From assembly GCF_003334305.1 (NCBI RefSeq), contig NZ_QOWS01000007.1: a stretch of DNA of 64,000 nucleotides. One strand, given 5' to 3'. A program made the translations under genes and the position numbers. Shown here piece by piece: positions 27,949 to 30,109 of this stretch. The notes beneath the pieces are model-generated. The model saw only the letters and a program-made list of their open reading frames with translations. It did no database searches and had not been told where the DNA came from. This DNA comes from Escherichia coli. GTDB lineage: Bacteria > Pseudomonadota > Gammaproteobacteria > Enterobacterales > Enterobacteriaceae. Positions within the stretch are counted from its first letter, which is position 1. The number at the start of each line of letters is the position of its first letter.

Positions 27949-28106
27949 CAGACTTAATGCCTATCCCAGTGGGCGTAATTATTGCAGGCAGTTTGGACAT
28001 GGACAGCGCGGAGAAACCGGAGCGTACACGTCGTACGTGAGGATTTCGAGCACTGCCCGGGGCCGAACTGGCAAATAAAATAGCCTGATGGGATAGGCTG
28101 TTAGCA
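27949..28106. repeat. GC-rich structured intergenic element between glrK and qseG (inverted-repeat flanked, internal palindrome)
   Basis: ctatcccagtggg ... cctgatgggatag flanking inverted repeats and internal palindrome cgtacacgtcgtacg; unusually long and GC-rich for an intra-operon gap. Confidence 0.45.
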
Positions 28107-29534
28107 TTATTTCGTGTTTTTCGACGACGGCAATTCAATGCGGAAACAAACGTCTTGCCCGCTCTCGTCGACCAGATACAGTTCCCCTTGCATACGGCGA
28201 ATACAATCCCTGGCAATGCTTAATCCCAGACCGCTGCCCTTCACCGCCCCTTTTCGCTGGTGGCTTCCTTGAAAAAAGGGTTCGAAGATCATGGCGCGTT
28301 CCTCTTGCGGAATGGGTGTGCCTGTATTGATGACATCAATATAAACCCGTGCACCATGTAAGCTGCTGCGAAGGCAAATGTTACCGGATTCAGCCCCGTA
28401 GTGCACCGCATTGGAGTAAAGATTATCCAGTACGCTCATCAGCAGCATTGGCTCCGCCAGGCAAGCTGTTGCTTTGAGATCGACGTCGGTATGCATCATT
28501 TTAGCCCGTGCGGGCAGGCTATGAGCAGAAACCACTGTCTCCACCAGCGGTGCTAATTCAACATTCTCCAGTTCCACCGCACTGTCCGCCTGTTTACGGT
28601 TGTAATCAAGCAGTTGTTCGATCAGTTTTTGCAAATTGCGGCTGCTGCTATCAAGAATGCTCACCACCTCTTTTTGCTCTGGCGTAAGCGGCCCGACAAC
28701 CTGGTCAGCCAGTAATTCAGTGCCCTCGCGCATACTCGCCAGTGGCGTTTTTAATTCATGAGATAAATGTCTTAAAAATTGATGGCGTTGGGATTCCAGC
28801 CATGACAGGCGCTCACTTAACCAAAGAATACGTTGCCCAACCGAGCGTAACTCGCTCGGTCCACTGAACGAAACGCTATTGCCCAGAGAACGCCCTTCCC
28901 CCAGACGGTTGATCATGCGCTCGATATTTTTCACCGGCCCGATAATCATCCGCGTGAAAAGTAGCACCATCACCAGACTCACCAGAAATAGCACCAGCGA
29001 TTGCCAACCAAAATATTGCCCACGTTCGGCGATTTCACGCTGAAGTTGCTGCCCACGAGAGAACACCACTGTGCGCGTGGCCTGCACCATTTCGGTATTG
29101 GCACTGGCAAAGGCTTCAAGACGCGCGGCGGCGGCAGCATCGGGACCACTGTTGTTACACTGAAGTTGGGCCAGATTGTTCAAATCCTGACGCAATGCCT
29201 GGTAAAGTTTATCGTCTGGCAGTACGCCTGCGTGGGCATCGAGCATTTCGCTGTAACGCTTGCGCTGGCTTTGATAAACCTTCGCAAGCGTAGGATCGTC
29301 CAGCACGCAATACTGACGGTAGCTACGCTCCATCTCCAGCGCCGCGTTGGTCATCGCTTCACTACGCCGGGCATCAATAAGCGTAGTGCGGTTAACCAGC
29401 GCCGCCTGATCGCTAAGCGCATTCAGGCTTTGCCAGGCTTGCCATGCCAGCACCAACAGGGGTAGTAGAATTAGCAAAAATGCCAGCATTACCAGTTGTC
29501 GTAATGAGCGGGGAAAAACAGGCCAGCGTTTCAA
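28107..29534 (-). CDS. glrK: Sensor histidine kinase GlrK (YfhK), 475 aa, probable TTG start
   Basis: ORF track 28107..29597; remembered protein begins MKRWPVFPRSL, which in this sequence corresponds to a TTG start at 29532-29534; HisKA and ATPase motifs present. Confidence 0.8.
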   Translation of the reverse strand: MKRWPVFPRSLRQLVMLAFLLILLPLLVLAWQAWQSLNALSDQAALVNRTTLIDARRSEAMTNAALEMERSYRQYCVLDDPTLAKVYQSQRKRYSEMLDAHAGVLPDDKLYQALRQDLNNLAQLQCNNSGPDAAAAARLEAFASANTEMVQATRTVVFSRGQQLQREIAERGQYFGWQSLVLFLVSLVMVLLFTRMIIGPVKNIERMINRLGEGRSLGNSVSFSGPSELRSVGQRILWLSERLSWLESQRHQFLRHLSHELKTPLASMREGTELLADQVVGPLTPEQKEVVSILDSSSRNLQKLIEQLLDYNRKQADSAVELENVELAPLVETVVSAHSLPARAKMMHTDVDLKATACLAEPMLLMSVLDNLYSNAVHYGAESGNICLRSSLHGARVYIDVINTGTPIPQEERAMIFEPFFQGSHQRKGAVKGSGLGLSIARDCIRRMQGELYLVDESGQDVCFRIELPSSKNTK

Positions 29535-29592
29535 GGTGTTACTCTCGTCAGACGCGAATAGCCTGATGCTAACCGAGGGGAAGTTCAGATAC

Positions 29593-29776
29593 AACAAAGC
29601 CGGGAATTACCCGGCTTTGTTATGGAATAAGGCGGTGCCTAACTCGACGTTTCGCCCGATGGTTGATATAGCTACGCTGATATCAGAAGTTGGACGGCAG
29701 GCACCTTGTTGTGCGTCATTCGAATTTTATGTAGCACGTCCCGAAGGGGCTGACATAAGTCGGTGAATGAGCCACT
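29593..29776 (-). ncRNA. glmY: Small RNA GlmY, about 184 nt
   Basis: Minus-strand sequence AGTGGCTCATTCACCGACTTATGTCAGCCCCTTCGGGACGTGC...AAAGCCGGGTAATTCCCGGCTTTGTTGT matches remembered GlmY, ending in a terminator hairpin directly upstream of glrK. Confidence 0.85.
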
Positions 29777-29786
29777 GCTTACTATT

Positions 29787-29804
29787 ATGCAGTAACTGTG
29801 CCAA
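29787..29804 (-). promoter_or_regulatory. Sigma-54 (-24/-12) promoter of glmY
   Basis: Minus-strand TGGCACagttacTGCAT with GG and GC spaced as in -24/-12 consensus, positioned just upstream of the GlmY 5-prime end. Confidence 0.8.
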
Positions 29805-30032: not shown

Positions 30033-30053
30033 TATGATAGTGGTTGGTGCTTA

Positions 30054-30086
30054 ATGCCGGATGCGGCGTAAATGCCGCATCCGGGC
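30054..30086. repeat. REP-like palindromic element downstream of purL
   Basis: gccggatgcggcgtaaatgccgcatccgggc, REP-type palindrome. Confidence 0.7.
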
Positions 30087-30109
30087 TGCAAAACCAATGA
30101 ACTGATGAC

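Follow-up and report, generated by a model that had tools for sequence, protein, structure and literature searches.

In Escherichia coli K-12, the sensor kinase gene glrK (GlrK = QseE = YfhK in EcoCyc/RefSeq) follows the small RNA gene glmY, and both are curated in the MG1655 genome, glrK as b2556 (NP_417051.2; 2689671..2691098, 1428 nt, 475 aa) and the glmY ncRNA at 2691157..2691340. According to PMC6075780 (Goepel & Goerke 2018, citing Reichenbach 2009), qseEGF has a sigma-70 promoter in the spacer after glmY, and its transcription start site (TSS) precedes the start codon by 25 bp; the two-component system is also described as ‘transcribed independently’ in Goepel 2011 (PMC3045617). Proteus mirabilis shares the gene order of E. 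coli, with glmY directly upstream of qseE, but its glmY terminator and intergenic promoter are reported to be lacking, and all four genes to be co-transcribed (PMC8745638). At the protein level, full-length QseE of Salmonella Typhimurium, with an N-terminus reading MKRWSVF..., is active, binds QseG and has been solved by cryo-EM (PDB 9m08; PMC12691602).

The window analysed here is a 64,000-nt stretch of E. coli DNA (contig NZ_QOWS01000007.1) in which the glrK (qseE, yfhK) coding sequence occupies 28107..29534 on the minus strand, encoding 475 aa plus a stop codon; this assignment draws on the open reading frame (ORF) list, the annotation, NCBI naming and published residue numbering (H259 and S58; see below). 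The plus-strand letters ‘caa’ at 29532-29534 read as TTG on the minus strand (29534-29532), and the codons that follow, AAA CGC TGG CCT GTT TTT CCC CGC, give (M)KRWPVFPR, confirming the original prediction that the N-terminus MKRWPVFPR maps to TTG AAA CGC TGG. The predicted distance to glmY is likewise borne out: when the MG1655 coordinates are mapped onto the window, the 3′ end of glmY falls at 29593, with the TTG 59 nt downstream. This TTG (29532..29534, minus strand) is the same base as the curated CDS start, and the window and K-12 genes thus share the start base, the 59-nt distance from glmY and the 475-aa length. We consider it highly probable that it is the true initiation codon of glrK/qseE and that the 475-aa sensor kinase is made from its own weak sigma-70 promoter. 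The choice of start codon is correct but already curated, and the promoter is already in the literature; neither is new.

The locus itself is ubiquitous in the species, with a 501-nt region of it present in 5,426 of 5,426 complete E. coli genomes. The window allele of this region shares 100% identity with strain 600468 and 98.4% with K-12. A 40-nt segment spanning the TTG was matched with no more than one mismatch in 4,357 of the 5,426 genomes, and the single mismatch in K-12 and O157 is a synonymous change in Pro5 (CCT to CCC). This is also the only difference between K-12 and the window from −106 to +54, the window carrying a different E. coli allele. In the three RefSeq PGAP records sampled (an identical strain, K-12 and O157), the qseE CDS start (locus position 1767) corresponds to window position 29534. 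Public records nonetheless give this one protein three N-termini. The exact 475-aa sequence, named QseE/GlrK in NCBI and UniRef, is found on at least 1000 contigs; an exact 460-aa version beginning at Met16 is also found on at least 1000 contigs; and a 496-aa version beginning at an upstream TTG is found on 54 contigs, mostly older Shigella records. Since the 460-aa form is this frequent, many automated glrK annotations are 15 residues short, and comparative evidence that indicates which of the three is correct has practical value. Its biological weight is small, since curation and the literature already cover both the start codon and the independent promoter.

For this comparison, 80 loci were fetched from different Enterobacteriaceae species, with protein identities of 77–99%; the 80-sequence analysis comprises 79 of these together with the window, and a 90-sequence total adds ten further loci from wider taxa, reached via truncated homologues (a protein search with residues 1-214 returned mostly truncated proteins). 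At the aligned start codon, the 80 Enterobacteriaceae sequences have TTG in 74 cases and GTG in 6, and the full set of 90 Enterobacterales sequences has TTG in 81 and GTG in 9, with ATG or any other codon, including other leucine codons, in none. Positions 2 and 3 of this codon have zero entropy, whereas nine nearby leucine codons use four to six synonymous codons each. Because internal leucine codons drift in this way while TTG or GTG is kept in 90 of 90 sequences, the conservation of the start codon goes beyond chance.

The sequence immediately downstream behaves as translated sequence. Over codons 2–30, the summed entropies at the first, second and third codon positions are 13.7, 3.1 and 32.8, respectively, and residues 8-15 (PRSLRQLV) are the same in all 80 sequences even though their codons vary freely at the third position; Arg9, for example, is encoded by CGC, CGT, CGA and CGG. 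This signature of invariant residues and variable third positions begins directly downstream of the TTG, not upstream of it, and it indicates that the stretch from the TTG to Met16 is translated. It bears directly on the possibility that the main product is a 460-aa kinase initiated at the downstream ATG (Met16; 29487..29489, minus strand), with the TTG being an in-frame codon of the 5′ untranslated region. E. coli favours ATG for initiation, many gene callers pick Met16, as the frequency of the 460-aa record illustrates, and ATG stands at codon 16 in 62 of the 80 sequences, with a first ATG at codon 17 in 5 more. However, in 18 of the 80, codon 16 encodes Thr, Val or Ile, and in 13 the first in-frame ATG comes only at codon 39-61, where initiation would remove the first transmembrane helix (TM1). 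Starting at Met16 would also discard residues 1-15 (MKRWPVFPRSLRQLV), a cytoplasmic tail that precedes the hydrophobic TM1 and has four Lys/Arg but no acidic residues, a composition that fits the positive-inside rule. Given the constraint on residues 8-15 and the variation at codon 16, Met16 is rejected as the main start and we regard this reading as very unlikely, although a minor second isoform from Met16 may be made in those species that have it. The start at the TTG also agrees with the Salmonella work, because the window product is close to the QseE of PDB 9m08 from residue 1; that protein shows the 475-aa form to be functional, without thereby proving the native start. A search of the literature returned no experiment that maps the GlrK N-terminus or the initiating ribosome directly: glrK, qseE, yfhK and b2556 are not mentioned in the supplements of TRAINSPOTTER or INRI-seq (initiation-site and N-terminomics data), and searches on qseE primer extension and on yfhK with TTG yielded nothing relevant.

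Upstream of the TTG, the frame stays open for 24 codons in E. coli, and the longest ORF runs over 28107..29597 (minus strand), encoding 496 aa. As originally predicted, it opens 21 codons upstream of the glrK start, inside the glmY terminator hairpin; its first codon is a TTG at 29597-29595, directly followed by a second TTG at 29594-29592. These two in-frame TTGs (codons −21 and −20; 29592..29597) are the only upstream candidates in the window, and the in-frame upstream ATG named in the original prediction as a possible start is absent. Both fall within the intrinsic terminator of glmY (29591..29623, minus strand), in its 3′ arm and U-tail; the terminator is predicted to fold into a 14-bp stem with a 5-nt loop at −23.3 kcal/mol, followed by a U-rich tail. 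The glmY gene itself (184 nt; 29593..29776, minus strand, limits transferred from MG1655) is identified by a full-length match to the Rfam model RF00128 at 29776..29629 on the minus strand (147.1 bits against a gathering threshold of 33), and GlmY was found upstream of glrK in five of six distant loci scanned. The terminator stem carries compensatory changes between genera (GCCGGG/CCCGGC, GGCAGAG/CTCTGCC, GCCAGG/CCTGGC and CGCCGGG/CCCGGCG), and the conservation of the upstream TTGs is therefore accounted for by that of the terminator.

That the 496-aa ORF is nevertheless real, translated from the TTG at 29597-29595 on glmY–glrK read-through transcripts, could be argued from its open frame in E. 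coli and from its annotation in older Shigella and E. coli records. Against this, its start codon would be base-paired in the −23.3 kcal/mol hairpin, read-through is reported to be virtually absent (PMC6075780), and the frame is not maintained across species. In many genera it is open for just 3-17 codons upstream of the start, and in 32 of the 80 sequences an in-frame upstream stop is reached with no ATG, GTG or TTG intervening before the aligned codon. The spacer also contains insertions that differ in length and reach about 35 nt, with some indels not divisible by three (in one species, locus L012, a single nucleotide is deleted 10 nt ahead of the start), such that in many species stops or non-triplet indels break the frame between the upstream TTGs and the real start. 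The published TSS adds a further argument. Of the candidate protein lengths, only 475 aa agrees with the H259 and S58 numbering that PMC6075780 uses (‘according to EcoCyc’), and so the start codon from which that article counts its 25 bp must be the present TTG; counting from there, the coordinate transferred in this analysis is 29559 (minus strand). As published, the TSS lies downstream of both upstream TTGs, and the resulting mRNA is too short to yield the 496-aa product. The original judgement that an upstream start is implausible was thus based on a sound reason, the hairpin, and is strengthened by the position of this TSS; we give the 496-aa reading practically no credence.

The published TSS falls 7 nt after the end of a conserved TAGCAT hexamer (29566..29571, minus strand), which we assign here as the −10 element; the promoter itself was described earlier, and the assignment of hexamers to it is our own. 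A hexamer of the form TA...T is found at this position in 90 of 90 sequences (TAGCAT in 68), and in 84 of the 90 the distance from its end to the start codon is 30–33 nt. A candidate −35 element, TTGTAT (29589..29594, minus strand), read from the sequence at a spacing of 17 nt, would overlap the U-tail of the glmY terminator. TTGTAT and TAGCAT together would form the putative sigma-70 promoter of glrK. A consensus scan reported neither this promoter, including TTGTAT, nor the glmY terminator, its hexamer and T-run rules being stricter than the respective sites; both were therefore judged by folding and conservation.

The presence of this spacer promoter and of the terminator bears on how glrK is transcribed. 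Co-transcription with glmY would go together with the lack of an efficient terminator and of a promoter in the spacer; here, both a terminator and a conserved −10 element are found. By contrast with Proteus, E. coli thus has both terminator and intergenic promoter, and glrK is transcribed separately. The original prediction had proposed that read-through of the glmY terminator may feed glrK expression. This is not supported as a source of glrK mRNA in E. coli, where tests in K-12 were negative: qseE′-lacZ fusions that carried the complete glmY locus could not be told apart in activity from those that lacked it, in either exponential or stationary phase, transcriptional fusions were unaffected by deletion of qseF, and read-through, as judged by RT-PCR, ‘does virtually not occur’ (PMC6075780). 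A weaker form of the proposal accepts the TTG start and holds that, in some conditions, a relevant share of glrK mRNA still comes from glmY read-through, with positive feedback as a consequence. In its favour are the U-tail of the terminator (UUUGUUGUAU), which is broken by a G, the strong stationary-phase induction of glmY through sigma-54 and GlrR (PMC3045617), and the single glmY-qseEGF operon reported for P. mirabilis (PMC8745638). Set against these are the K-12 results just described, the strength of the terminator hairpin and its conservation through compensatory changes, and the conserved −10 hexamer of glrK, which together make such a contribution unlikely. Two further sources were considered and set aside: the word ‘cotranscribed’ in Gruber & Sperandio 2014 concerns espJ-espFu and not glmY-qseE, and a direct RNA sequencing paper mentions glmY just in passing.

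Several other elements were noted around the gene. Upstream of glmY, a sigma-54-type motif, TGGCACAGTTACTGCA (29788-29803, minus strand), lies 12 nt from the glmY 5′ end; it is the sole match in the 64-kb window and agrees with the sigma-54 promoter published for glmY. REP-type palindromic repeats (GCCGGATGCGGCGT...) are present at 30051-30091, in the purL-glmY spacer, and at 1059, 12344 and 52803, the first of these adjoining a terminator-like hairpin of purL at 30033-30012. On the other side of glrK, a terminator-like hairpin at 28082-28099 (minus strand; AGCCTATCCCATCAGGCT followed by ATTTTATTTG) sits directly after the stop codon, inside the described qseEGF operon, and could either attenuate transcription of qseG and glrR or stabilise the 3′ end of the glrK transcript. 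The 164-nt spacer between glrK and qseG further contains about 66 nt (27995-28060, minus strand) of a dispersed, unannotated intergenic repeat of E. coli, with a median of 5 copies per genome and a maximum of 8. In one of the aligned loci (L053), the same element also occurs upstream of glrK, at the place where the glmY terminator is expected.

Returning to the TTG start, its immediate context is weak throughout. A Shine-Dalgarno-like element, GAGAG (29542..29546, minus strand), lies 7 nt upstream, and its sequence is kept in the majority of the 80 Enterobacteriaceae sequences. Its predicted pairing with the anti-Shine-Dalgarno sequence, −3.4 kcal/mol, is equalled by 30% of internal control positions, and GAGAG was therefore rejected as positive evidence for the start, its pairing being no better than background. 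The native 5′ untranslated region plus early coding region has a predicted folding energy of −8.5 kcal/mol (70-nt fold), less stable than shuffled sequences (z = +1.67). A small predicted hairpin over the Shine-Dalgarno-like element and the TTG was set aside as well, because it is weak in the native leader, which is less stable than its shuffles. This weak leader structure is compatible with an accessible start.

Global proteomics found QseE to be undetectable, compared with 36 QseF and 11 QseG molecules per cell (PMC6075780). The weak promoter, the 25-nt leader, the weak Shine-Dalgarno-like element and the TTG together fit this low reported kinase level, of which the TTG and its weak context would be a plausible cause. 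In the arrangement that we propose, glrK has a weak sigma-70 promoter of its own, fitted into the 58 nt that separate it from glmY, and the strong, conserved glmY terminator insulates it from sigma-54-driven bursts of glmY transcription. The glrK mRNA begins 25 nt upstream of the TTG and therefore lacks the two TTG codons at the head of the 496-aa ORF; initiation then takes place at a weak TTG codon, with the weak GAGAG element at a 7-nt spacing, on a short unstructured leader.

The wider sample offers some indication of how this start may have arisen. In six Yersinia/Serratia-like or more distant loci, the sequence reads ATG xxx xxx TTG AAA, and the aligned codon is TTG in all six; in three Pantoea/Erwinia-like loci it is GTG, and in Klebsiella variicola TTG. 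An ATG at codon −3 relative to the conserved TTG is seen in Yersinia/Serratia-like and in some Buttiauxella/Cedecea-like loci (L085-L088, L091 and L092, and L061, L067, L070, L076, L078 and L082). The E. coli sequence has AGT where this ATG(−3) stands (GAG AGT AAC ACC TTG versus GAG ATG ATT TCG TTG). The pattern suggests that the start may have moved from ATG(−3) to TTG in the core Enterobacteriaceae, or else that TTG is used throughout.

The point that we consider mildly new is that, across the species examined, this start is never ATG. A single T-to-A change would create one, yet none occurs in the 90 sequences, while the T-to-G change that gives GTG has arisen in several separate genera. 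ATG may therefore be selected against at the glrK start; the sample contains few independent changes and is suggestive only. Tentatively, and with more doubt than confidence, we raise the possibility that selection holds the glrK start at a weak non-AUG codon as a translational throttle, keeping the kinase far below QseF and QseG. If so, glrK would be a clean natural case in which the choice of start codon sets the ratio of kinase to regulator in a two-component system.

Conserved weak non-AUG starts that limit expression are familiar from lacI (GTG) and infC (AUU). No autoregulatory mechanism of the kind that IF3 discrimination provides at infC is known for glrK, and control of kinase dosage by the TTG would be an analogy. 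The likeness of glrK to the lacI and infC class lies in two shared features: a non-ATG start kept across many species, and a low abundance of the protein that it produces.
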